Of a stretch of 27,311 nt of DNA, positions 204 through 21,432 are shown piece by piece (position 1 is the stretch's first letter; each line of letters starts with the position of its first letter). Source of the DNA: Gemmatimonadota bacterium (GTDB lineage Bacteria > Latescibacterota > UBA2968 > UBA8231); contig JAYOYH010000058.1 of the NCBI GenBank assembly GCA_038153405.1, forward strand, positions 1-27,311, read 5' to 3'. The notes under the pieces were generated by a model. That model was not told the origin of the DNA. It worked only from the letters and a program-made list of their open reading frames with translations, and ran no database searches. Both the position numbers and the translations under genes were made by a program.

Positions 204-2918
204 CTACGGGCGCGTCCAGCGCAGGTGGTGCAGCAGCGTGGCGCCGGTGGAATGCTCCAGCGGATAGTCGCGCACTGTAATGGAGTGGCTGTCTATCGCC
301 TCCACGTCGTAGCCCGTTTCGCCGATGAGCAGCACGTCGCTGGGCGGCAGGTCCTCGGGCAGCGGCTGGGCCAGGTTCAGAGTGCGGTCGTCTATCGAAT
401 GGACCTCGAGCGCCGTGTGGCCGCGCGGCAGCTGCCAGCTGTAATCCCCAAACGAAAGCTCTCTTCCATCGAGCAGGTAGGCGGCTAGTGGCGCTCCGTC
501 CTGGTCGACGGAGAGAAAGGCAAAGCGACCGGCCAAGGCGACGGGACCGTAGCAACGCCTGCGGTCGTCGGGTGCCGAAAAGATGTAGTCTGTGCGCTCG
601 GCTAAGCGCACTTCCACGGCCAATGCATCGCCCGTCTCGCCGCTTTCCAACAGCCGCGCGTCGACAACGGGTGACGTTGCCTCTTTGTAGGGAACCATCA
701 GCGCGGCGAAGTGGCTGGTCAACGGTGCGTCATCGGCCGTGCGTTCGGCTAGCAGCTGCTGCACGGGTGCGGCATTCTGCTGGCTGCCGTGACAGGAGCG
801 CCAGCCCGGTGCGTCGGCCAGCAGCAGGCGTGCAAACGGACTGAGCAAGTGCCAGTCGAGCTGCGCGCCCTCGTGGGACCACGTCGCGCGCATCGGTCTG
901 TTGGCCTGCGCCGTGCGCGGATGCTCCACCCATTTCAACCATTCGGCCAGCGTCTCTTCTGCCCCTTGCAGCGGATTGAAATCGGCCCCGTTATGTACTA
1001 ACGCACCGTTGCAGTGGAACAGGTAGTGGTGGGTATGTCCGCCTATGACGCGAAAGAAATCCACCGCATAGCTGCTGCCGCTGGGTAGCCCTACCAATGC
1101 GCAGGTACGCTCGTATAGAGCGCACTGTGCGTAGGCCTGCGCCTGCGCGCGCACGATTTCCACGCCCGGCCCGCGACCCAACAGCGCGAGATTGGCGTCG
1201 CGCTCGGGATGATTTTGCTGTTGACCGTCGACGGCGACCAGATTGTGCGACAGCGTGCACTTGGTCCAGGCGCCGCGCGGATCGTCCCAGATATAGCCGC
1301 GATCGGCCGCCAGCTCGCGGCCGTGGGCCACGTAACTGATGCCGAGCGTATCGGTGTGGCGGTGACCGCCCTGAGCGGAGGCGTTGAAGTAGAGGGCCGT
1401 ATGGCCGTGTGGATCGCCGTTGCGCAGCACGCCGACCTGCCAAGCGGGAAAGTACTCAGTGCGGCGCGGCAGCAACGCGGCGCCGTCGACGCGCAGTTCC
1501 GGGTCGCGGTGCCAGAGCGCGTACTCATCGCCCGCCTCGGCCAGCGGCTTGCCCAGTGCCTGTTCCAGCAGGCCTGCGTAGCGGCTGCCGTAGTGGGCGC
1601 AGAGCACCTCGGCGTGAATGGGTTGCAGGCCGTCGCCATAGTGGGTGTCGCCGATCACGGGATATTTCAGATTGGGGTCGAGCATGCGCACCATGCTTTC
1701 GAGCGCCAGTCGATAGCGGTCAAAGTGCGCGTAGGGTGCAAAATGGTCCATGCGCGTCCCGCTTTGGGGACGGTAGTCGGGCGGATCGCTATAGCCGTCC
1801 AGCAGGTCGGGCAGCGCGCGCATGAGCGTTAGGTACATATCCGAATAGGACGGCGATTCGCTGCAGAAGCCGTCGGCGTGAAAGCCCTTTTCGAGCAGAC
1901 GTTGGAAGCCGTCGATGGCGCGGCGCACGCTGGCGGGGCGATCAAAGAGCCGACCGACCAGCGCGCTGAGCGCGCGGGCCGGCGGGCACTTGTTGTTGAT
2001 CTCGTTCCAACACTCCATATCGGCACTGCCGGCCAGAATCAGGTCGTCGACGATGCGCTGCTCTCTATCGGGCGTAAACACTTCCGCGCCGCGCAGCAGG
2101 TCGTAGGCGCGCGCCATGTCGAGCAGCAAGGAAGCGTCGCCGCCGCTGCAGCCAAAGCGCCCCGCGCCCCAAAAGCCGTTAAAGAGCACGGAGTGATCGC
2201 CCTCGCGGTGACGCCCTGTAAACGCGCTGATAATGGTTTCGTGCGCAAAGCGCCCGCCGCGCGGATGGGCGCCTAGGCTGCGCGCCACGTCGCCCGGCGG
2301 CGCGTCTGCATAGGTGCCGTCGTAGGAGTGGAAGAGCCAGTAGGGATAGCGCGCGGCGGCGATCTCCATAATCCATACGGCGCGTTCGGCGCAGGCGCTA
2401 TCGCCCGTCAGGGCGTAGAGTTGGGCCAGCGGTAGCACCTGGTCAAAGCACCAGCGGCCCTGCTTGGAGCGCAGCACGCCGCTAAAGCTGGTGTGCACGG
2501 GAAAGGTCACCCAGCGGTAGGCGTGCGTGCCCGTGCGGTCTTCGGGATGGGCGCGCTCGTCGTCGTTGAGATAGAAGGCGAAGGTTTGTCCCATGCGCGG
2601 CGCGGTAAGCGCGCCCGTTTCTGGGTAGGCTTCGTTGGGGTACTCCGTTTGGCAGTAGGTGCAGACCAGCCGCTCGGGATTGCGCACGTCCCACGCATAG
2701 AGGCCGGTCTCGCCCATTGACGAGAGGCGGCCGACGCAGGCCGGGCAGTTTTGCCCGTACTCGGGCCACGGCGTTAGCTCGGGCATCATGCGCTCGAAAA
2801 AGGCGCGGTCTTGCCCTAGGGCGTAGTCGACCTGCTGCCGCCAGCCGGCCACCAACCGTTGGGCCCAGGCGTGGCGGCGGTAGTTTTCGCGCGCGATGTG
2901 GACATTTTGTACGGGCAT
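204..2918 (-). CDS. Heparinase II/III-like polysaccharide or oligosaccharide lyase (904 aa), no signal peptide
   Basis: Helical N-terminal half with an E-S-x-x-Y motif (ESPSYS). C-terminal GHRHTDTLG...DRGY...HNLVAVDG matches the Hepar_II_III beta-sandwich signature. N-terminal CxxC...CxxC. Starts 18 bp after the amidohydrolase stop. Confidence 0.85.
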   Translation of the reverse strand: MPVQNVHIARENYRRHAWAQRLVAGWRQQVDYALGQDRAFFERMMPELTPWPEYGQNCPACVGRLSSMGETGLYAWDVRNPERLVCTYCQTEYPNEAYPETGALTAPRMGQTFAFYLNDDERAHPEDRTGTHAYRWVTFPVHTSFSGVLRSKQGRWCFDQVLPLAQLYALTGDSACAERAVWIMEIAAARYPYWLFHSYDGTYADAPPGDVARSLGAHPRGGRFAHETIISAFTGRHREGDHSVLFNGFWGAGRFGCSGGDASLLLDMARAYDLLRGAEVFTPDREQRIVDDLILAGSADMECWNEINNKCPPARALSALVGRLFDRPASVRRAIDGFQRLLEKGFHADGFCSESPSYSDMYLTLMRALPDLLDGYSDPPDYRPQSGTRMDHFAPYAHFDRYRLALESMVRMLDPNLKYPVIGDTHYGDGLQPIHAEVLCAHYGSRYAGLLEQALGKPLAEAGDEYALWHRDPELRVDGAALLPRRTEYFPAWQVGVLRNGDPHGHTALYFNASAQGGHRHTDTLGISYVAHGRELAADRGYIWDDPRGAWTKCTLSHNLVAVDGQQQNHPERDANLALLGRGPGVEIVRAQAQAYAQCALYERTCALVGLPSGSSYAVDFFRVIGGHTHHYLFHCNGALVHNGADFNPLQGAEETLAEWLKWVEHPRTAQANRPMRATWSHEGAQLDWHLLSPFARLLLADAPGWRSCHGSQQNAAPVQQLLAERTADDAPLTSHFAALMVPYKEATSPVVDARLLESGETGDALAVEVRLAERTDYIFSAPDDRRRCYGPVALAGRFAFLSVDQDGAPLAAYLLDGRELSFGDYSWQLPRGHTALEVHSIDDRTLNLAQPLPEDLPPSDVLLIGETGYDVEAIDSHSITVRDYPLEHSTGATLLHHLRWTRP

Positions 2919-7252: not shown

Positions 7253-8134
7253 TTAGTGATCGCCGCTATACTGTTCGCCGGCCTGCACGTATAGATCCAG
7301 CCGGTTTTGCTCGGGCGGCAGCGGACAGGTCGCGTAGGGCGTGAAGGCGCAGGGCGGGCTGTAAGCCTTGTTGAAGTCGATCGTCGCGCGGCCGTCGGCA
7401 TGGTGGTCGACGATCAAAAAGCGGCCGCCGCCGTAGGTCTCTTGGCCGTTGCTCTTGTCGCCGAATACGACGAAAAACTGCGCGTCGCTCGCCTCGCCAA
7501 AAACGGCCAACCGGTACTCCTTGCCCTCGACAGAAAAAACGACATTGCCGGGCCACGGCGTCTGTGAAACGGTGCCGATGATCGACGGCACATTGATGCT
7601 GCGCGGCTCGGCAAAGGGCGCAAAGTGGCCTTCAATGCGCCAGGCCGGATCGGCGTCGAATGAAGGAATTCCCGCAAAATCCAGGCGCGTTGGACTCTGC
7701 GTGTCCTTTAGGCGCACGCCGTAGCGCCCGTCGCGTTCGATGGGGTAAAAGCGCAGCGAGCGGAAGCGCAGTGCGGGCGGATCGGCGTTTTGTAGATCGG
7801 TAAAGTCAAGCATTTGCACGGGCTGTTCGACGCCTGCCGTATCTAACCGCGTCACCCCGGACGCCGTTATAAGCGCGCTAACGCGATCGCCTTGCAATGT
7901 GAAAGATCCCATGTGCGACGGAGCGCCGTCGGGAAAAATAAGGTCGTTGCCCTCGGCCGAGCCAAAGGTGTTTTTCCCTTCGCGCAGCCAGTAGAGCCCA
8001 GTCAGGCTGAGAAAGCCTTCTTCGGCCGTGAGCGCCGCGAGGCGCTGCTGGCGCCAGTGCTCGATGCCGGCGGTATATTCGTCGGCCTGCCCCGTAGAAA
8101 AGCAGACCAGAGTCCAGAGGACGATAGCGAGCAT
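7253..8134 (-). CDS. DUF1684 domain protein, secreted
   Basis: N-terminal signal peptide. Conserved ETYGGGRFL and IDFNKAYSPPCAFTPYATCPLPP..N motifs. Confidence 0.9.
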   Translation of the reverse strand: MLAIVLWTLVCFSTGQADEYTAGIEHWRQQRLAALTAEEGFLSLTGLYWLREGKNTFGSAEGNDLIFPDGAPSHMGSFTLQGDRVSALITASGVTRLDTAGVEQPVQMLDFTDLQNADPPALRFRSLRFYPIERDGRYGVRLKDTQSPTRLDFAGIPSFDADPAWRIEGHFAPFAEPRSINVPSIIGTVSQTPWPGNVVFSVEGKEYRLAVFGEASDAQFFVVFGDKSNGQETYGGGRFLIVDHHADGRATIDFNKAYSPPCAFTPYATCPLPPEQNRLDLYVQAGEQYSGDH

Positions 8135-8224
8135 GAGAATTTCCCTTTACAAAAACTGTGTGATAGGCCAGAGAAAACGCCAAAGAAGGCTTAGGGCTGT
8201 TTTTTATACTCGATAGGTCTGCTG

Positions 8225-8253
8225 AACATAGGGCGAGAGGTCTCATGTGCCAA
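8225..8253 (-). promoter_or_regulatory. Putative sigma70-type promoter for the DUF1684 gene
   Basis: Minus strand TTGGCA-N17-TATGTT, about 90 nt upstream of the start codon. Confidence 0.5.
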
Positions 8254-8292
8254 AGGGCAAGTCGCCTATTTAATGGTCAGCACGTGTGGATA

Positions 8293-8309
8293 AAGTAAGG
8301 TCCTTACTT
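8293..8309. promoter_or_regulatory. Perfect 17-bp palindrome, candidate transcription-factor operator
   Basis: AAGTAAGG-T-CCTTACTT. The 1-nt spacer favours a DNA-binding site over an RNA hairpin. Lies in the divergent DUF1684/sulP intergenic region. Confidence 0.55.
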
Positions 8310-8949
8310 ATATTTAACATGGTCTCGATGGATATATGAGCAGGCGACGGGCTGCACATGGTCTAGAGTGCTGCGAATGAAGAAGTCGCCAAAGCGGTGC
8401 GCATGGCATGCTGCATCGGTTAGGATCCATGAGACGCGTTATAGCAGTGTGCATGCGGAATGTGACAATACCATCAGAAGGGATAAAATCCAAAGAGAGA
8501 CGACAACCGTTATTTGATTTTTGTGCTATAGCCAGTCCATTCTACCTGAACAAGTCGTTGAGCATTTTCCCCAAAGTGCGTGCGGATGGGTTCTTTTTAA
8601 TGCTGCCACCGCTTAGCGCTAATAAGTACTAGTCGCGTTTTCGTTCATATGAGAATACGATCCGTGCTGCCTGGCCCGGATCAAGTGCATCGGTGCATTT
8701 TTCGACTGAAATAGTTCGGATAAGGCACCAGCCGCCCTACAGCTAAGCAATACAAAATTCATTCGACATACCGTAGACCCTTTCGCACAGATAGCACCTT
8801 CTATGTGTCGGTCATGGCTTGTGCTATGCGTGCATCCGAACCGCACGTGCATGAGCGAACGGTAGCAAATAGTGTGTGTAGTCCGAGCTATATACGCTCC
8901 AAAGCAGAGTACATTTTCACTCCTATCGGAAGATTGAGGCCATTTTTGT

Positions 8950-10563
8950 ATGAGACGTCTTATTCATAATTTTACGCTCAACCCCAAAAATGATATTCTA
9001 TCAGGCATGACCGTTGCGTTAGCGCTCGTGCCGGAAGCGGTCGCCTTTTCCTTTGTTGCCGGTATTGATCCCTTAGTGGGGCTATACGGTGCGTTTATGA
9101 TGGGGTTCATTACGGCGCTTATCGGCGGTCGACCGGGTATGATTTCCGGTGCGACAGGTGCTATGGCGGTCGTGATGGTCCACCTGATTCAACAGGGCAA
9201 CCTATATGGACTGACATTGGATACCCCCATAGAAAATCTGGGCGTACAGTGGCTGTTTATTACCCTGCTCTTGGTGGGTATCCTTCAGGTAGCTGCCGGT
9301 GTTTTTCGGTTGGGGAAGTTCGTTAGGCTCGTACCTCATCCCGTCATGATGGGATTCGTTAATGGGTTGGCCATTGTCATATTTCTATCACAGCTGGAAC
9401 TTTTTAAAGAGCGAATCAATGGCAGTATGCAGTGGCTAGCTGTCGGCGAGCTATCCATCATGCTCGGACTCGTCGCCTTAACGATGGGCATTATGCACAT
9501 TCTTCCGAAACTGACAAAGAAAATCCCCGCGGCATTGACGGCCATTGTCATCGTCAGCGGCCTCGTCATACTCGCTGATATGGATGTGAAAACGGTGGGG
9601 TCGTTTATACGAGAAGGGGGTGGTGAAGGGCTCAAGGGATCTCTACCTAGTTTTCAAATTCAGATATTTAGTCTGTTCCACACCGTAGAAGGTCATTGGG
9701 GATTGATCGTTTCCACGGCATGCTTACTGGCTGCTGTGGGTCTAATAGAATCTTTGATGACGCTAAACTTAGTTGATGATATAACCGAAACGCGTGGCAG
9801 CGGTAACAAAGAGTGCATTGCCCAAGGAGTGGCAAATACTGTAAATGGATTGTTTGGCGGTATGGGCGGATGCGCCATGATTGGCCAATCCATAATTAAT
9901 GTCAATTCGGGCGGACGGGGTCGGTTATCTGGTATAGCGGCGGCTCTTGGCTTGTTGACGTTCGTCTTATTTGCAGCTGCATTAATTGAGAAAATACCGC
10001 TGGCGTCCCTTGTTGGGGTTATGTTCATGGTTGTAATCGGCACGTTTGCCTGGAGCAGCTTTAGGATTGTTAACAAAGTACCAACTTCTGATTACTTTGT
10101 GTTGTTTGTCGTGACGGCCGTTACCGTCTGGCAGGACCTAGCCGTTGCAGTTATTACCGGGGTCATTATATCGGCGTTGGTTTTTGCTTGGAAAAATGCA
10201 ACCATGATCCGTGCCCGTAAACGGATTAAAGAAGATGGAACAAAGGTCTACGAGATATGGGGACCGCTCTTTTTTGGAGCCGTCCAGACGTTTAATTCAA
10301 AATTTGATGTCAGGAGCGATCCCGACAAAGTTGAGATTGATTTTGTTGAATCAAAGGTGAGTGATCACTCGGGCATTGAGGCAATAATCAACCTAGTGTC
10401 CAAGTATAAACACGTAGGTAAATCGATTAAATTGAAACATCTGAGCCCCGAATGTAAGATGCTTTTGCTCAAGGCAAATGCAAGCTTACAGGCGAACATT
10501 GAAACCTCTATTGATGATCCCAGATATCACGTGGTAACCGATAGTATGGACCGTGAGGTATAA
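8950..10563 (+). CDS. sulP: SulP/SLC26 family inorganic anion transporter with C-terminal STAS domain
   Basis: DILSGMTVALALVPEAVAF, GRPGMISGATGA, GGMGGCAMIGQS and STAS GPLFFG...DHSG. Many hydrophobic segments. GC is lower than in the flanking genes. Confidence 0.95.
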   Translation: MRRLIHNFTLNPKNDILSGMTVALALVPEAVAFSFVAGIDPLVGLYGAFMMGFITALIGGRPGMISGATGAMAVVMVHLIQQGNLYGLTLDTPIENLGVQWLFITLLLVGILQVAAGVFRLGKFVRLVPHPVMMGFVNGLAIVIFLSQLELFKERINGSMQWLAVGELSIMLGLVALTMGIMHILPKLTKKIPAALTAIVIVSGLVILADMDVKTVGSFIREGGGEGLKGSLPSFQIQIFSLFHTVEGHWGLIVSTACLLAAVGLIESLMTLNLVDDITETRGSGNKECIAQGVANTVNGLFGGMGGCAMIGQSIINVNSGGRGRLSGIAAALGLLTFVLFAAALIEKIPLASLVGVMFMVVIGTFAWSSFRIVNKVPTSDYFVLFVVTAVTVWQDLAVAVITGVIISALVFAWKNATMIRARKRIKEDGTKVYEIWGPLFFGAVQTFNSKFDVRSDPDKVEIDFVESKVSDHSGIEAIINLVSKYKHVGKSIKLKHLSPECKMLLLKANASLQANIETSIDDPRYHVVTDSMDREV

Positions 10564-10715
10564 CAGAACTATTGGTTGTCTACTGGACTAGCTGCTCGTG
10601 CTAATTCGTGCTCAACGCAGCGCGCTTGTCCGTATAGTAGACCCGCTGTGTATAGTGGCGAAAGTATTTTTTCGGTTTTCATGTGAGTCCTATTTCGAAT
10701 GGAGAAACTATTTCA

Positions 10716-11864
10716 ATGCATAACTCAGAAGAGAAAAATACAGAATCGGTCGGAGAGGCGGGTCGAATTCAGGGCTTTGAGCAGGACGAAACCGATCGGC
10801 AAGCGGCCCTGCGCTGGGAGCCCGTTTCCGATCGCAAGATCCGCGTGGGTATTGCCGGATATGGCGTCTGTGGATTTGGCGCGGCGTTCCACTTTCAAGA
10901 CCATCCCAATGTGCGCGTTGACGCAGTGGCCGATATCCATCCCGACAAATGCGCAGAGCTCGCTCGGCTGTGTCGATGTGAGACGACCTACGCATCGTGC
11001 GAGGAGTTAATTGCCGACGATGCGCTTGAAGCGATCTTTATTGCGACCGACGCGCCGAGCCATGCCCGGTTGGCCATTGCTGCGCTCAATGCCGGCAAGC
11101 ACGTTGCCTCGGCCGTCCCGGCCGTCTTTGGCTCGTTGGAAGATGCCGATGCGCTCTTTGCCGCAGCGCAGCGCAGCGAGGGTAAGTATATGATGTTCGA
11201 AACGTCTTATTTCCATCGCGATCTCTACTGCATGCGCCAGATGTATCGGCAGGGCGACCTGGGCAAGGTGGTCTACTCCGAGGGCGAGTACTGGCACTAC
11301 TTTGGCACGCCGCTGTCCGCGCACGGGGGCTGGCGCACGGGACTGCCGCCGCAGTGGTATCCGACGCATTCGAATGCCTACTACATGGGCGTGACCGGCG
11401 GTAGCTTTACCGAAGTATCGTGCATGGGAATGCCGAGCGCGATTGAACACCTGCAGCCGCAGAACAATGTGTACAACAATCCATTTGGCACGGAGGTCGC
11501 GCTCTTTCGCACCAGCGAGGGGGGCATGTCGCGGATGGCGGTAAGCTGGGACACGCCGGGCGAGGGGGGAGAGCGCGGGCGCATTCGCACGGAGCGGGGA
11601 ACGTTTTATGGCGCGTTTAAAGGCATTGGCGAAGACCTATTGCCGGACATAACGCGCCCGCCCTTGCCGCCTGGCGTCGATGCGGGCGGCCATGGTGGTT
11701 CGCACGGCTACCTGATGAACGAGTTTGTCGAAGCAATTCTGCTAGATCGCACACCGCTTATTGACGTTGCGCAGTCGCTCAATATGACCGTCAGCGGTAT
11801 CGTCGCACACGAGTCAGCGCTAAAGGACGGCGAGCTACTGAAGATTCCACAGTACGTGCTCTGA
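10716..11864 (+). CDS. Gfo/Idh/MocA family NAD(P)-dependent oxidoreductase
   Basis: Rossmann motif KIRVGIAGYG, IATDAPSHA, GKHVASAVP, EGEYWH, YPTH and GHGGSH. ATG at 10716 with GGAG upstream; an alternative GTG is at 10683. Confidence 0.9.
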   Translation: MHNSEEKNTESVGEAGRIQGFEQDETDRQAALRWEPVSDRKIRVGIAGYGVCGFGAAFHFQDHPNVRVDAVADIHPDKCAELARLCRCETTYASCEELIADDALEAIFIATDAPSHARLAIAALNAGKHVASAVPAVFGSLEDADALFAAAQRSEGKYMMFETSYFHRDLYCMRQMYRQGDLGKVVYSEGEYWHYFGTPLSAHGGWRTGLPPQWYPTHSNAYYMGVTGGSFTEVSCMGMPSAIEHLQPQNNVYNNPFGTEVALFRTSEGGMSRMAVSWDTPGEGGERGRIRTERGTFYGAFKGIGEDLLPDITRPPLPPGVDAGGHGGSHGYLMNEFVEAILLDRTPLIDVAQSLNMTVSGIVAHESALKDGELLKIPQYVL

Positions 11865-15721: not shown

Positions 15722-17188
15722 ATGGCCAAGAAAGAACGTTCGCGGCAAAAGAATAAGAGCCCAAAGGTCGCGCGCGCTGCAGGCCGTGTTCCGGCAGATA
15801 TAATCGAGCTGGGGTCTCGGCGAGAATTGTTCGTCGATGACTATCTGATCGAGCGAATGGACGGCATCGAACTGCGCCTGCACGAGCCCGTGCCGCGCAA
15901 CGTAGCGATTGATCACGACGCGCCGTGGGAGGGCAATACCAGCGGCTACCACGCGATTTTTAAGGACGGCCGGCTGTTTCGCGCCTATTACCGCGGATCG
16001 CACTACGAGGCACACGGTGCCTACAAGCCGGTTGTGTGCTATGCCGAAAGCCGCGACGGCATCGAGTGGTACCGGCCAGAGCTGGGCTTGGTCAGCTTCA
16101 AAGGGTCGACGCGCAACAATATCGTTTGGGACGGCCCCGGCGCGCTCAACTTCACGCCGTTCCGCGACCGCAACCCAGCCTGTCGGGCGGGAGAGGAATA
16201 CAAGGCGCTGGGCAGTCCGCACGCCAGCAGCCGTGAAGAGCAGGCCCTGCTGGCCTTTAAGTCTTCCGACGGCATTCACTGGAGTCTGCTGTCGAACAAA
16301 CCGGTGATGGACCACACCACGGGCATCAACCTGTTTGACTCACAGAACGTGGCCTTTTACGATCCGCAGCGCGGCTGCTACGTCGAGTACCACCGCGATT
16401 CGATCTACCCGGACGGAGTGCGCTACCGCCAAATTATGACCTGCACCTCAAAGGACTTTCGTTGCTGGACGGAACAGCAGCTGCTCGACTACGGCGATGC
16501 GCCGCTCGAGCACCTCTATACCAACGCAGTGACGCCCTACTACCGCGCACCGCATATCTACATAGGTTTTCCCAAGCGCTTTGTGCCGGGTCGCCGCCGC
16601 TCCGGTCACCGGCCCCCCGGCGTGTCGGACACCGTGTTTATGACTAGCCGCGACGGGTTGCACTTCAAGCGCTGGGGCGAGGCCTTTGTGCGGCCCGGCC
16701 TGCAGCCGGAGCGCTGGGAGACGCGCAACAATATGACGGCTTGGGGTATGCTTGAGACGGCCAACTACCTGCCAACGGCGCCCAAGGAGCTATCGATCTT
16801 TGTCAGCGAGGGGTACTATGGCAGCGAAAACGTCCGGCTGCGGCGCTTCACGCTGCGCATGGATGGCTTTGTTTCGGCCAAGGCGCCATTGAGAGGAGGT
16901 AGACTGGTCACGCGGCCCTTCACCTTTGAAGGCGGTGCGCTGAGCCTCAATGTCAGCACCTCGGCGGCCGGATCGGTGCGCGTAGAAGTCCAAGAGGGCG
17001 ACGGCCGGACCATTGCGGGATATGCTCTGAGCGACTGCGACGAGATCTACGGCGACGACCTAGAGCGCATGGTCACTTGGAAGGGGCGCGCCGACGTCGA
17101 GCCGCTGGCCGGTCGTCCGGTGCGCTTGTGCTTTGCGCTGAGCGACGCCGACCTATACAGCCTGCAGTTTACGCCGCTACCCCGCTAA
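15722..17188 (+). CDS. Putative glycosidase-like beta-propeller protein (GH32/43/130-like architecture) with C-terminal beta-domain
   Basis: ELFVDDYLI, repeated S-x-D-G-x-x-W boxes (ESRDGIEW, SSDGIHW, TSKDFRCW, TSRDGLHF), FDSQN, LRMDGFVS and ADLYSLQF. AAGGGG SD. No hydrophobic signal peptide. Confidence 0.75.
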   Translation: MAKKERSRQKNKSPKVARAAGRVPADIIELGSRRELFVDDYLIERMDGIELRLHEPVPRNVAIDHDAPWEGNTSGYHAIFKDGRLFRAYYRGSHYEAHGAYKPVVCYAESRDGIEWYRPELGLVSFKGSTRNNIVWDGPGALNFTPFRDRNPACRAGEEYKALGSPHASSREEQALLAFKSSDGIHWSLLSNKPVMDHTTGINLFDSQNVAFYDPQRGCYVEYHRDSIYPDGVRYRQIMTCTSKDFRCWTEQQLLDYGDAPLEHLYTNAVTPYYRAPHIYIGFPKRFVPGRRRSGHRPPGVSDTVFMTSRDGLHFKRWGEAFVRPGLQPERWETRNNMTAWGMLETANYLPTAPKELSIFVSEGYYGSENVRLRRFTLRMDGFVSAKAPLRGGRLVTRPFTFEGGALSLNVSTSAAGSVRVEVQEGDGRTIAGYALSDCDEIYGDDLERMVTWKGRADVEPLAGRPVRLCFALSDADLYSLQFTPLPR

Positions 17189-19446
17189 AAAAACGCGTTG
17201 TGCAGCAGGCGCAGGCTGCGCCCGGGCTCGGGAGAGAGGTCTTTAATGCGGTTGAGGTGTTTTCGGTAGACCGCATCGGTGGCATTGTCTAGACTCAGCG
17301 AGAACGCGTGCAGGTGCCCGCGCCAGTAAAGTGTATACTGACCCGATAGATCCCAAACGGCATAGCCATCGGTCGGCGTCTCAAAGGGGCCAATGCGCCG
17401 CTGTGCGGTGGCCCAGCGCAGCGCTCCGGTCCACTCCAACGCTTCGCGCGGCTCGTACGTCAGGCCAACCCGTCCCTGCAGCGGCGGCAGGCGTGGAATG
17501 GCTTCGTCCCCTAAATCGGATAGCGTGCCCTGCACGTAGCCCAGCGTACCAGCCGTTTTCCAACGGGGCCTGATGTGCCAGGCGAAGGACGCCTCGATGC
17601 CGTGCATAAGTGCTTCGAGGCCAACGGTCTGATACAGGAACAGGTCGGCGCGTCGCCAGCTGCGCTGTCCGGTATTTTGGGGGAAGATGTATCCGTCGAT
17701 ATGGTTGCGGAACACGGCCATGCTGAGATGGTCTTTGTCGCGGCGGATCTCGGCAAAGACTTCTACGCCCAGTGCGCGCTCGCTGCCTAGACGGCCGTTG
17801 CCGACTTCGTAGGCGTAAGACGCCAAATGGGGTCCTTCCGAAAAGAGCTCTTCGACGCCTGGGGCGCGAAAGGTGCGCATGAGCGTAGCGCCCACGCTTA
17901 CCTGGCTGTGCGGTTGATACTGAACGGACAATCCGCCGGATGCGCCGGAAAAGCGGCGCGGTTCGATGCGGCCGACCCAGCGCGAGTCACGTTCCTCTTC
18001 CGGCGTAATGCGGCGCGTATCAACGCGCAGTGCGCCTTGTGCTTGCCAGGGTCCGCTTCGCCAATCGCCGTACGAGAAGACGGCGCCGGCATATTCTTGG
18101 GCATCGGGGGTAAAGTTTAGCCCTGCTGCCGCATAGTTGCGATACTCATACCAAATGCCCAGCGCTGCGCGCTGTCGAGCGCCCGAGCGTCCCCAGTGCA
18201 TTTGCGCGCTGCCGTTGTGCGTTAGCACGCCAAACTCCATACCCAGCGCGCGGCCGTCTTCGTATTCTGCGTGCTCGTAGCGGGAAAAGGCGTGGTGTAT
18301 ATCGAGCATTTCGATACCAATGCGATCTACCCCTCGCCACCGACTGCGCAGCTCGGCGTGCTGGCGCTCCATTTCGATGGCAACGCCGTTGGAATGGCCG
18401 CCGTCGGGATTGGGTGGAATGCCGTAGTGTGAGCGATAGAAGCCCAGCGCCCCCCCGGTGTGGCCCCACGCGCGTATAGCGCTCATGCCCAGCGCGGCAT
18501 TACCCGTTTTTATGTGGGTGTTGGACAGTAGCCCGCGCGGCGTCGAAACGTCTCCGGCCGTGCGCCAACTGCCGTCTGCGCGCAGGACGAGCGATCGACC
18601 CAGCGGCTGCACGTGCTCTAGGCCCAGCGACAGGCCGCGGCTGCCGCTTTCGCCCTGCCACGATGCGGCGCTCCCCGCGTGCGCTGGCCGCTCGCTGGGC
18701 ACGTAGCCGCGCCGTACGTTGATGACGCCGCCCAGTGCATTGGAACCGTAGACCATGGTCTCCGGTCCGCGCACGATTTCGATGTGCCGCGTCGTCATCG
18801 GATCGACGGCCACGGCGTGGTCGGATGAGGTTGCCGATAGGTCGCCCGTGCGCTCGCCGTCTTCCAGCACGAGCAATCGGTCGCCGCTCAGTCCGCGCAG
18901 CACCGGCCGAGCGGAGGCTGGTCCCATGGAGCGCTGGGCGATGCCCGGCTCGTAGTCGATGGTTTCGGCGATGGTCTGGCCGAGATGTTGCCGTAGCTTG
19001 CTACCGCTAAAGACGACGTCGGGCTCGCTCAGTGGCACTAGTGAGCGTTCGCGCTGACCGTCGATGCGCACCTCTTCTAGTAGCAGTTCTCGGTGACCTA
19101 TTTGCAGATCGACACGGGTGGTATCACCTGCTGTAATCTCCACGGCAAAGCGCGCGTCGTGGTAGCCGATGCGCAACGTTTGAACCACGCGGCGCCCTGC
19201 AGGTAGGCCAGTAAAGAAAAAGGCACCCTGCTCGTCGACCATCTGGACGCGGTCCGTGCCCTCCACGAGCACGGTGACCCACCCTACGGCTTCTTTGCTC
19301 TCGACATCAATAACGCGCCCGGCCAATGCACCGCTTTGCGCGCTGGCTGCAGCGGTGCACATGGCCCAAAGTACAAAGCCAATATGGCGCAGTGCTCGAG
19401 CGCAGCTGACCAGCGGAAGGCGCCGTGGTTTTCGCAGATGCGGCAT
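17185..19446 (-). CDS. TonB-dependent receptor, ZnuD-like metal-uptake subtype, with N-terminal carboxypeptidase-regulatory-like domain
   Basis: Signal peptide (...AAASAQ), GRVIDVESKE domain, plug motifs RPVLRGLSGDR, SSDHAV and IEIVRGP, FRAPGVEELFSEGPH, terminal Phe. Start is ATG 19446 or TTG 19455. Confidence 0.9.
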   Translation of the reverse strand: MPHLRKPRRLPLVSCARALRHIGFVLWAMCTAAASAQSGALAGRVIDVESKEAVGWVTVLVEGTDRVQMVDEQGAFFFTGLPAGRRVVQTLRIGYHDARFAVEITAGDTTRVDLQIGHRELLLEEVRIDGQRERSLVPLSEPDVVFSGSKLRQHLGQTIAETIDYEPGIAQRSMGPASARPVLRGLSGDRLLVLEDGERTGDLSATSSDHAVAVDPMTTRHIEIVRGPETMVYGSNALGGVINVRRGYVPSERPAHAGSAASWQGESGSRGLSLGLEHVQPLGRSLVLRADGSWRTAGDVSTPRGLLSNTHIKTGNAALGMSAIRAWGHTGGALGFYRSHYGIPPNPDGGHSNGVAIEMERQHAELRSRWRGVDRIGIEMLDIHHAFSRYEHAEYEDGRALGMEFGVLTHNGSAQMHWGRSGARQRAALGIWYEYRNYAAAGLNFTPDAQEYAGAVFSYGDWRSGPWQAQGALRVDTRRITPEEERDSRWVGRIEPRRFSGASGGLSVQYQPHSQVSVGATLMRTFRAPGVEELFSEGPHLASYAYEVGNGRLGSERALGVEVFAEIRRDKDHLSMAVFRNHIDGYIFPQNTGQRSWRRADLFLYQTVGLEALMHGIEASFAWHIRPRWKTAGTLGYVQGTLSDLGDEAIPRLPPLQGRVGLTYEPREALEWTGALRWATAQRRIGPFETPTDGYAVWDLSGQYTLYWRGHLHAFSLSLDNATDAVYRKHLNRIKDLSPEPGRSLRLLHNAFF

Positions 19447-19469
19447 GCTATACAACGCGGAGTACGATG

Positions 19470-19958
19470 CTACTCGTCTTCGTGGTCTTCGCCCGGACCG
19501 CTCTCCGTCACGCGCACGGCAAAGGGCAGCGCAACAAAGTCGGCGTGGCCGTTGTGATTGAGCTTAATGACTATTGTCGTCTCTCCTATGCCTTCTCCGA
19601 CAATGTGGAAGGACCACATTCCATCGTCTTCGTGCCATTCGATTTCGGCGATCGCTTTGTCTGCGACGTCCCAGCCGAGGGAATAGCCATCGTCGGTGGC
19701 GGGCGAAAAGAGCGCGCCCTCTTCGTTCAAAAAGCGAACGCTCAGCAGCGCCGTTTCTTTTTCCAATCCGACTTCTACTTCACCGCTGACGGCCCCCTGT
19801 TCGTAGCGGACCAGTTCCACGCCGCTGTTATACAGCACAAAGCCAAACGCTTCGGCGTGTTCGTCTGCGCGGTCTTCGTTTACGGGATTGTCGTCACTGC
19901 ATGCGGCGACGAAAAAGAGTGCGGTCAGTATATACAGGGTAGATTGTGCTTTAAACAC
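19470..19958 (-). CDS. His/acidic-rich lipoprotein, probable partner of the TonB receptor
   Basis: Lipobox VAA-C20 after a hydrophobic stretch. DEHAEA, HNGHADF and C-terminal EDHEDE. GGAG SD 9 nt before the GTG. Confidence 0.85.
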   Translation of the reverse strand: MFKAQSTLYILTALFFVAACSDDNPVNEDRADEHAEAFGFVLYNSGVELVRYEQGAVSGEVEVGLEKETALLSVRFLNEEGALFSPATDDGYSLGWDVADKAIAEIEWHEDDGMWSFHIVGEGIGETTIVIKLNHNGHADFVALPFAVRVTESGPGEDHEDE

Positions 19959-20097
19959 GTTTCATTTCTCCGTTGAGTGGTGCGCTCTAGCCTGTGTAAT
20001 AGCGCACGGCGCGAACGCACGGGGGTCTGTACAGGCGCGGTTCGATCCCGTCGCCGTATATCAGACTGCTGTGTGGTATAGAAAAACGGTGCCGCGT

Positions 20098-20179
20098 GCT
20101 ATCCCACCTGCGGAATAGCTATGCGGACAGGTGTGTCGGCCATGCTGACGATAGACCCCGGTGGGGGTGCTGCGTCAGC
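20098..20179 (-). promoter_or_regulatory. Structured intercistronic leader with alternative hairpins
   Basis: A GCTGACG/CGTCAGC stem (20144-20179) with an inner ACCCC/GGGGT overlaps the upstream stop codon. Two mutually exclusive hairpins lie at 20098-20119 and 20105-20133. Confidence 0.5.
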
Positions 20180-20490
20180 TATGCAAAACGTGGAGGTGCT
20201 CGATTGGAAAGGGAAAAGCCAGAGAATAGCAGAAATTGGGGTACGGACCATTGGGAAGAGACGAACGCACGGCGCACCGCAGGGGAAAGCGCAATGGCCG
20301 CTGTAATCGACAGCTGCACCAAGCTGCTTTCCAGCATGTGAAACGGGCAGCTTTCGGGCTCGACCGAGAGGTCGTGAAAGAGCTGATGTCCGAGCGGCAG
20401 GCCCAGGAAAAGGCTCAGCAATAGGGTGCCGAGCAGCAGGTTGGCAAGCCGCATGCGGCGCGTTGGGCGATTGGGTGTGCACAGATCCAT
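20179..20490 (-). CDS. DUF2946/CruR/CutF-like leader protein with C-terminal RAPP arrest motif
   Basis: MDLCTPNRPTRRMR, then a transmembrane segment (LANLLLGTLLLSLFLGLPLG), then HQLFH...CPFH...NRAPPRFA*. Directly upstream of the lipoprotein and TonB receptor. Alternative start at ATG 20454. Confidence 0.75.
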   Translation of the reverse strand: MDLCTPNRPTRRMRLANLLLGTLLLSLFLGLPLGHQLFHDLSVEPESCPFHMLESSLVQLSITAAIALSPAVRRAFVSSQWSVPQFLLFSGFSLSNRAPPRFA

Positions 20491-20619
20491 GCGGTTGAAT
20501 ATAATGCAGTAAAGGAAAAGCGATAGGCTCACTTTTTTTGTTCGTCACGCGCAGATACTATCGGTCAAAGACGGCAGCTCGACGCAGAAGACCAAAGTGG
20601 CTAATAGAGTAAATACAGA

Positions 20620-21432
20620 TCAGTCTGAGGGGGCATACTCGCCGCGCGCGTTCCAACCGGGATAGTGCGCCTCGAGGGCCGACAGCATTTCGCGCGTGTA
20701 GTAGGGATGGCCGGCTGGTGGAAAGCGAAATAGCTCGCGGTCGCGCGCGGTGAGTTCGGCGATAAAGCGGCGGAAGTGCTCATCGCGCGCGACGTGCGTG
20801 TAGTGGGCGACGCCCTCCCAGTAGTGGTCGGCGCGTCCGTAGGCAAACTTCCACACGTAGCGCTGGCCGTCCTCGCGCCGGTAGGGACTGGCCGCGTGCC
20901 AGGTGTAGTTGTGAAAGATAGCGACCGAGCCGGCCGGTGCGACAAAGGCCTCGGCACGGCGTTCATTGCACTCGTGCTGGTTGGCGACAAAGAGCGTGGG
21001 CGCTTGGTCCTCGGCGACGTCTTCCAGATAGAACCAGAAGTTGAGCTGGGCGTGGCGCCGCTCGGAAGTGGGCGGCAGCAGTGAGTTGTTGCCGTTGTCG
21101 AAGTGGAATTCCATGCCGCCGCGCCCCGGGTAGGTGCACATCAGCAGGCCGGGCCGGTAGTGGATGGATTGGGTGCCTAAAAAGCGCTGGGCGAAGGCGA
21201 TGGACTCGCGGTGGACGATGGCGCTGTTTAGGCAGGGTTCCGGATAGGGGAAGAAATAGTTGGTTAGGCGGTCTTTGGGCGGGTCGGTGCGCACATCGTC
21301 CCACGGCTTGAGCAGTCGGCGCGCGGCCACGGCCATTTCGGCCACCTGTTCGGGCGGCAGCAGGCGCTCTACGATGGCGTAGCCGCGCTGGCAGACCTGC
21401 TCAAAAACGGCGTCGTTGAGTTTTTTTTCCAT
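20620..21432 (-). CDS. Phytanoyl-CoA dioxygenase (PhyH) family Fe(II)/2-oxoglutarate dioxygenase
   Basis: GYAIVERLLP, HFD (HxD), YLEDV..DQAPT, PAGSV, distal WHAAS and Arg. Start moved to ATG at 21432 (MEKKLND). Confidence 0.9.
   Translation of the reverse strand: MEKKLNDAVFEQVCQRGYAIVERLLPPEQVAEMAVAARRLLKPWDDVRTDPPKDRLTNYFFPYPEPCLNSAIVHRESIAFAQRFLGTQSIHYRPGLLMCTYPGRGGMEFHFDNGNNSLLPPTSERRHAQLNFWFYLEDVAEDQAPTLFVANQHECNERRAEAFVAPAGSVAIFHNYTWHAASPYRREDGQRYVWKFAYGRADHYWEGVAHYTHVARDEHFRRFIAELTARDRELFRFPPAGHPYYTREMLSALEAHYPGWNARGEYAPSD

Follow-up and report, generated by a model that had tools for sequence, protein, structure and literature searches.

How zinc uptake across the outer membrane might be controlled in a bacterium whose genome yields no match to the Fur family is the question raised by a 27,311-nucleotide (nt) stretch of DNA (the window; assembly GCA_038153405.1, contig JAYOYH010000058.1, positions 1 to 27,311) from a Gemmatimonadota bacterium placed by GTDB in the Latescibacterota. 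Three genes follow one another there on the minus strand: an open reading frame (ORF) of 103 residues, hereafter the leader (20179..20490), a lipoprotein gene separated from it by a spacer of 220 nt (19470..19958), and the gene for a ZnuD-type TonB-dependent receptor (17185..19455). An earlier sequence-only reading had taken the leader for a cis-acting, RAPP-ended switch resembling CruR and CutF, in a non-proteobacterial lineage. Comparative evidence supports the former view, one source names a family homologue as Ca. Latescibacteria in agreement with the latter, and the coordinates proposed for the leader ORF, its HQLFH, CPFH and RAPP motifs, the spacer, the lipoprotein and the receptor all hold. 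That reading overlooked a second transmembrane (TM) helix, a predicted RNA helix between the leader tail and the lipoprotein start, and the undetectable Fur/Zur. The explanation favoured here is that the leader would be a membrane-inserted arrest peptide keeping the lipoprotein and the ZnuD-type importer on at low zinc, with a probability for the whole chain of roughly 0.55. Among its parts, arrest of the leader in cis is very probable from the comparison of sequences, zinc is probably the metal sensed, and a translational output of the leader is rather likely.

The leader is predicted to form a helical hairpin in the order TM1, loop, TM2, linker and RAPP. Its Arg-rich N-terminus precedes TM1, or signal segment (residues 15-33, 20392..20448, minus strand as for all features of the locus), which was called from Kyte-Doolittle (KD) hydropathy only (2.05). 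Then follow HQLFH (20374..20388), whose His35 and His39 are predicted metal ligands by their conservation in homologues, and CPFH (20338..20349), in which Cys48 is invariant and His51 variable among homologues. Where one TM or signal segment had been described, TM1 is confirmed and a second hydrophobic helix had been missed (residues ~54-72, 20275..20331), weak here and strong in relatives, which reaches KD≥1.6 in 63 of 67 homologues and ends a median of 27 residues before the Arg of the arrest motif. This motif, RAPP (R97-A-P-P, 20191..20202), lies 45 residues after CPFH and three codons ahead of the stop codon (TAG). The AlphaFold2 (AF2) model is a two-helix hairpin (helices 11-38 and 49-81; predicted local distance difference test, pLDDT, 82; predicted template modelling score, pTM, 0.48) where we find H35 and H39 closing the first helix and C48 opening the second. 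An R[AGS]PP C-terminus occurs in 33 of the 23,768 genome frames of at least 85 residues, and only one of the 33 combines this end with a Cys 45-53 residues before it and a hydrophobic segment near the N-terminus; since this sole frame is the leader, present in one copy in the genome, its occurrence goes beyond chance.

Searching 41 genomes with the receptor yielded 30 loci, 25 of them with lipoprotein and receptor, and an orthologous leader precedes these genes in 23 of the 25. A leader profile matched 51 of 168 phylum genomes and 49 of the 75 family genomes besides this one; it was not broad enough to pick up the CxxC leaders of family f2, and these were located by their position upstream of the cargo. 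Pooling of loci left 67 distinct leaders, with R[AGS]PP in 65 of them (RAPP 30, RGPP 20, RSPP 15; the other 2 were parsed as RPPP and RRGP), placed 2-3 codons ahead of the stop, and a Cys-to-arrest spacing of 42-46 residues in 65 of the 67 (45 here). The next gene is the lipoprotein in 55 cases, the receptor in 7 and another or unknown gene in 5. Ten family leaders have P32, H35, H39, C48, P49, L53, R97, P99 and P100 in common, and H35, C48 and the PP are kept throughout 46 wider homologues of 24% mean identity, H39 in ≥90%. Altogether, these comparisons indicate that the leader is a real gene under selection.

The survey of upstream ORFs suggested earlier thus found TM, RAPP-type motif and spacing conserved, and CxxH not. 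At its fourth position the Cys motif has C in 30 of the 67 leaders, H in 13, S in 9, Y in 8, R in 4 and another residue in 3, so that CxxH is one state of a series. CxxH, once proposed as the signature of the metal site, was rejected as the defining motif, and the conserved set of predicted ligands is HxxxH plus one Cys. In a second phylum, that of an Ignavibacterium record (G168), the lipoprotein is found in 39 of 121 genomes and a His-rich RxPP leader at 29 of 30 fetched loci, L155 being the one locus without a leader call. A single-protein search of a genome contig collection returned 1 locus, and a metagenome search returned 14, with a leader in 8, an upstream region too short in 2 and no leader by the pattern used in 4.

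In the mechanism proposed, the stalled state would be the ON state, with the ribosome halted when Pro99 occupies the P site, as has been demonstrated with CruR. Its footprint would mask the last leader codons and the stop, which, when unmasked, would pair with the Shine-Dalgarno (SD) or start region of the lipoprotein 120-290 nt downstream; because the footprint covers this pairing arm, stalling would free lipoprotein initiation. The geometry of the leader was judged by the capacity of the ribosomal exit tunnel: C48 to P99 spans 51 residues, which fits the tunnel plus one membrane span and would therefore place a His2-Cys site at the periplasmic face, with ~30 residues in the tunnel and TM2 in the translocon. 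Zinc binding would then close the helical hairpin, promote insertion of TM2, pull the chain free and relieve the stall, after which the released ribosome would finish, the long-range helix would close, and Rho might terminate transcription at the exposed C-rich stretch.

The RNA side of this mechanism was approached by asking how well the 21 nt beginning at the predicted P-site codon pair with the start region downstream, at a threshold of shuffle P≤0.05, in 58 loci (the 67 leaders minus 8 lacking a usable downstream start and 1 duplicate). Pairing reached the threshold in 45 of the 58, and in 35 it also exceeded that of 95% of other leader windows; the mean duplex energy was -15.9 kcal/mol for cognate pairs versus -9.5 kcal/mol across genera. 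The main argument for selection on this pairing is that the partner sequence shifts with the lineage, in four registers: the SD (family f2), the interval between SD and AUG (genus g14), the AUG with the first codons (g18, g16, g11 and g3) and a GUG (g1). Pairing also occurred at 19 of 29 loci of the second phylum, where downstream starts were picked by rule and several look wrong. When the footprint was blocked in 26 of the 58 loci (at most 3 per genus), the start region opened more easily by >1 kcal/mol in 16. In the window itself, the leader-tail arm (20186..20192), which would lie under the stalled ribosome, is predicted to pair with the start-region arm (19956-19962) as a 7-bp helix with an ensemble probability of ~0.8, the whole target region (19956..19971) including the SD at 19967-19971. 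The feature of SecM/CutF-type switches, a stem over the downstream SD or start with one arm under the stalled ribosome, is therefore found by computation, weakly in the window. The leader-to-next-gene distance in relatives is 93-287 nt. A short way before the GTG stands an ATG in a different frame, which could make the lipoprotein start look frameshifted; this reading was rejected, since relatives of the genus share that ATG and it forms the start-helix arm.

Several results weigh against this explanation. Tail:start pairing misses the threshold in 13 of the 58 loci and in 10 of the 29 of the second phylum, opening of the start was hindered in 3 of the 26, and the loci behind the pairing statistics are kin rather than independent. 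The window fares poorly: taken alone, its tail duplex falls short of significance (P=0.13), its switch gains just 1.1 kcal/mol where two relatives of the genus gain 7.7 and 3.5, a measure on the SD alone points in the direction opposite to the one predicted (3.9 free versus 4.6 stalled), and its second hydrophobic segment is weak (KD 1.33). Second-phylum leaders mostly have no strong second helix, and 4 leaders have Asp in place of His39. A close relative (locus L004, genome G006) keeps lipoprotein and receptor and has lost the leader, another (L007, G009) has a remnant only, and cobalt/corrinoid genes (CbiM, CobO, CobQ, FecCD) and MerC stand near some loci. Moreover, the signal segment of CruR was reported as dispensable (PMC9426467), which argues against a required periplasmic site.

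The weakness of the tail helix in the window also favours an alternative in which the arrest would be relieved by metal in the same way, with Rho-dependent termination as its main output, as in CruR, and the start-region helix secondary. The genome has a Rho match over cut-off, and a C>G, YC-rich stretch just before and over RAPP (20160..20266; C 29-30 versus G 11) is a candidate Rho utilization (rut) site; the skew averages 0.40 and exceeds 0.3 in 83% of the 58 loci, partly due to Pro codons. In CruR, a C>G bubble inside the gene itself harbours the rut site (PMC9426467). A conserved hairpin that begins with the stop codon of the leader (20144..20179) could serve as pause site, with two-sided changes in 8 of 9 pairs and 87% of cells paired among 15 hand-picked loci whose relatedness was not removed. 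From the conservation of the C>G stretch, as in CruR, Rho may be a second layer or even the main one. Pro and Ser codons, however, account for part of the skew, and Rho alone leaves the lineage-specific complementarity between tail and start unexplained, so that we regard termination as main output as unlikely, at about one chance in a handful.

For the metal, the cargo is informative. ZnuD of Neisseria meningitidis has a buried high-affinity zinc site made of Asp99, His100, Glu340 and His499 (PMC4557270; PDB 4RDR), and these align with D212, H213, E397 and H543 of the receptor at a constant offset of 14, residues kept in 18, 19, 18 and 19 of 19 receptors, respectively. ZnuD is also the best PDB match (E 7e-35) and the best NCBIfam match (NF038289, E 1e-48, compared with 6e-21 for the copper receptor model), with a score of 166.6 bits that lies below the family cut-off of 950. 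The lipoprotein (162 residues) has an Ig-like, Big_2-type fold and an acidic His tail according to structure search and homologues; its best structural match, an S-layer Ig domain (Z 10.3, root-mean-square deviation 2.4, 92 residues aligned), is generic Ig-like only, and Pfam and NCBIfam searches gave no family for either leader or lipoprotein. It had been called His-rich, which holds only modestly here (6 His of 162 residues); what stands is a set of invariant residues (H34/E36/H135/H138/D140), of which H34, H135, H138 and D140 occur in 16 of 16 homologues, and a part of the lipoprotein in metal capture may be inferred. In 20 extended loci, COG0523 is found in 4, an ATP-binding cassette (ABC) gene with FtsX and DUF3299 in 3, and Fur together with ZnuA in 1. 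At L040 the leader directly heads the ABC/FtsX/DUF3299 operon, which we take to be comparable with Vibrio zrgBCD. COG0523, znuABC and zrgABC(DE) are described as Zur-regulon genes (PMC6103462). The four ZnuD ligands and these zinc-limitation neighbours support a cargo of the zinc type, as previously suspected.

Sensing of another metal (Co, Ni or Cu), or of several soft metals, would be compatible with a His2-Cys site, since such sites are not zinc-specific, as well as with the CxxC found, as in CruR, in 30 of the 67 leaders and with the cobalt/corrinoid, MerC and cation-efflux genes near some loci. The receptor keeps the Asp/His/Glu/His set of ZnuD and scores far better on the ZnuD model than on the copper model, though, and none of the copper genes PCuAC, SCO, YcnI and CopC was among the 83 proteins scanned out of the 419 ORFs called around the loci. 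This alternative is accordingly quite improbable.

In this genome (93% complete) neither a Pfam search nor a custom six-frame hidden Markov model (HMM) matched the Fur family, a match having been obtained in 13 of 14 control genomes. The same holds for 53 of 76 genomes of the family (f1), which is unusual against those controls, and for 33 of the 50 family genomes that carry a leader, 13 of these 33 being single-contig; among the remaining 17, a Fur gene lies ≤30 kb from a leader in 10. A test for Zur control saw no shared palindrome before the leader, an Rfam search of 19400-20800 gave no riboswitch, and a promoter and terminator scan of the spacer gave nothing convincing. Where no Fur/Zur is found, control of the importer by zinc would rest mainly on the leader. 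A bolder form of the favoured explanation, in which the leader is a zinc-sensing nascent-peptide switch replacing Zur, its two-helix hairpin and His2-Cys site reading periplasmic zinc, its release closing the long-range helix, and outer-membrane uptake depending on it alone for zinc control in a mostly Fur-less lineage, is tentative, and its chances are below even. As for transcription, an SD precedes only 1 of the 58 leaders, and a -10-like hexamer is found 4-12 nt upstream in 24 of them, where each of two control windows gave 6; in the window a putative one (20498..20503) lies 7 nt before the leader ATG, which has no SD. The scarcity of SDs and the frequency of the hexamer suggest leaderless transcripts, so that the leader mRNA is likely leaderless.

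A leader monitoring membrane insertion or export in the manner of SecM or MifM, with no metal and with structural His and Cys, could be read from the two hydrophobic segments, the robust arrest motif and the non-conserved second Cys/His position of the Cys motif. It is very unlikely, given that H35 and C48 are invariant in 46 sequences of 24% mean identity and that the cargo is a metal importer rather than sec or yidC. Least probable of all is a switch that in this genome is decaying or only tunes coupling, with largely constitutive expression, for although the window, set against its genus relatives, has the weakest TM2 and also a weak tail helix, and G006 lost its leader, the invariant residues, spacing, hairpin and 7-bp helix (p ~0.8) are all intact.

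Some loci showed arrangements of their own. At L004 (280-930; G006, same genus and same flanks) an AT-rich stretch replaces the leader, in a genome that again gives no Fur-family match. At L007 (516-776; G009) a degenerate remnant with an RGPP end and no stop adjoins a Fur gene, COG0523, WD40 and ZnuA, and leader control has possibly been exchanged there for Zur control. Tandem modules, each copy with its own leader, occur in genus g14 (L074-L082, L097) and likewise in family f2 (L021/L041, L049), either as leader and lipoprotein repeated ~1.1 kb apart or as leader, lipoprotein and receptor twice. In genus g18 (L083, L086, L088, L090) the receptor directly follows the leader, its first codons resemble a lipoprotein start and the start helix is kept; L059 has a second leader upstream (RSPP/CAVC), and at L098 a family leader heads a 380-residue protein without Pfam match. 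Elsewhere in this genome, contig C17 (45100-50300) carries a DtxR-like gene divergent from a troABCD-like operon, two permeases of which have C-terminal extensions (annotation read from translations); a 30-bp palindrome lies between them, and its 20-bp core occurs only before the troA-like gene and before none of the leaders. Within the window, the flanking genes are unrelated catabolic ones, 8001-11000 has a low GC content (0.48-0.50 versus ~0.62) with a SulP/STAS permease at 8950-10563, and 204-2918 (minus strand) encodes a 904-residue protein whose C-terminus gives a weak heparinase II/III-like match.

If true, the favoured explanation would account for the regulation of zinc uptake in Fur-poor Latescibacterota. 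The surprise is lessened by the fact that arrest leaders form a known and widespread class, and upstream ORFs (uORFs) ending in RAPP before TonB and zinc-regulated receptors have been catalogued (PMC12992588). New at this locus are the single-Cys two-helix form, the predicted register-shifting long-range helix and the Fur-poor background. In our literature searches, no paper came up in which an arrest peptide was shown to sense zinc; according to Roy et al., riboswitches for Cu or Zn had not been described, and further metal-sensing uORFs are to be expected (PMC9426467). The clade makes a compact test case, with three named ligands, a fixed spacing and a named mRNA helix with compensatory variants; its natural series of CxxC, CxxH and Cxx-other leaders offers a handle on metal selectivity, and leader-bearing genomes without detected Zur are free of Zur confounding.

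Among known systems, arrest at RAPP occurs when its third residue occupies the P site and is resistant to elongation factor P (EF-P), and CruR arrests in vitro (PMC12992588). The same work presents RAPP/RGPP uORFs before TonB receptors as a class universal in Gram-negatives (Fig. 4 and source data); in the source data, at least 9 rows precede 'zinc-regulated TonB-dependent' receptors, and row 8370 matches the leader of one family member (L029) from its seventh-last N-terminal residue onward. Its main text has 0 occurrences of zinc and mentions neither the ligands of this clade nor an mRNA switch. SecM, MifM, VemP and ApdP share with the leader, as proposed here, a RAPP-like arrest at the third residue and a stalled ribosome that breaks an SD-sequestering stem, SecM-type stalling being described as freeing an SD (PMC10987492), but they monitor protein export, precede sec or yidC and have no conserved metal ligands. 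ZnuD shares with the receptor the overall match and the four ligands; the receptor differs in an extra N-terminal carboxypeptidase-like domain and in a short loop after YGIP without the His clusters of ZnuD, and ZnuD is under Zur, unlike the receptor of this genome without Fur-family match.

The closest systems are CutF and CruR. CutF of Rhodobacter capsulatus is described as sensing periplasmic Cu (bioRxiv 10.1101/2025.02.05.636593), and here too an exported nascent chain is proposed as periplasmic metal sensor and a stalled ribosome would expose a shielded SD. However, CutF stalls at PPP in response to metal, in a manner sensitive to EF-P, and switches a detoxifier on, whereas the leader has RAPP and metal is predicted to relieve its stall, turning an importer off. 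CruR (Bp2923, Bordetella pertussis, DUF2946/PF11162) stalls without metal, and its release triggers Rho (PMC9426467); DUF2946 genes were also among those changed in a Caulobacter Zur study (PMC4176598). A profile search against this family, suggested earlier, left the leader below the PF11162 cut-off, with no match at E≤1, none at the locus in the genome search and 1 of 18 leader members at E 0.16, and an Atlas cluster with 17% DUF2946 at 0.93 is a lead only. The leader differs from CruR in having HxxxH and a single conserved Cys instead of CxxC, a second TM helix, a ZnuD-type cargo with lipoprotein, a predicted long-range start helix, and zinc-limitation neighbours in place of copper homeostasis genes. 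Both are nevertheless the first operon gene before a TonB receptor, with an export signal, a Cys motif 45 residues ahead of RAPP, RAPP three residues from the end, a C>G bubble near the gene end, a long intergenic region and, as predicted for the leader, a stall that means ON for an importer. Not a DUF2946 member by HMM or by CxxC, the leader is thus predicted to work like CruR, CutF and SecM.

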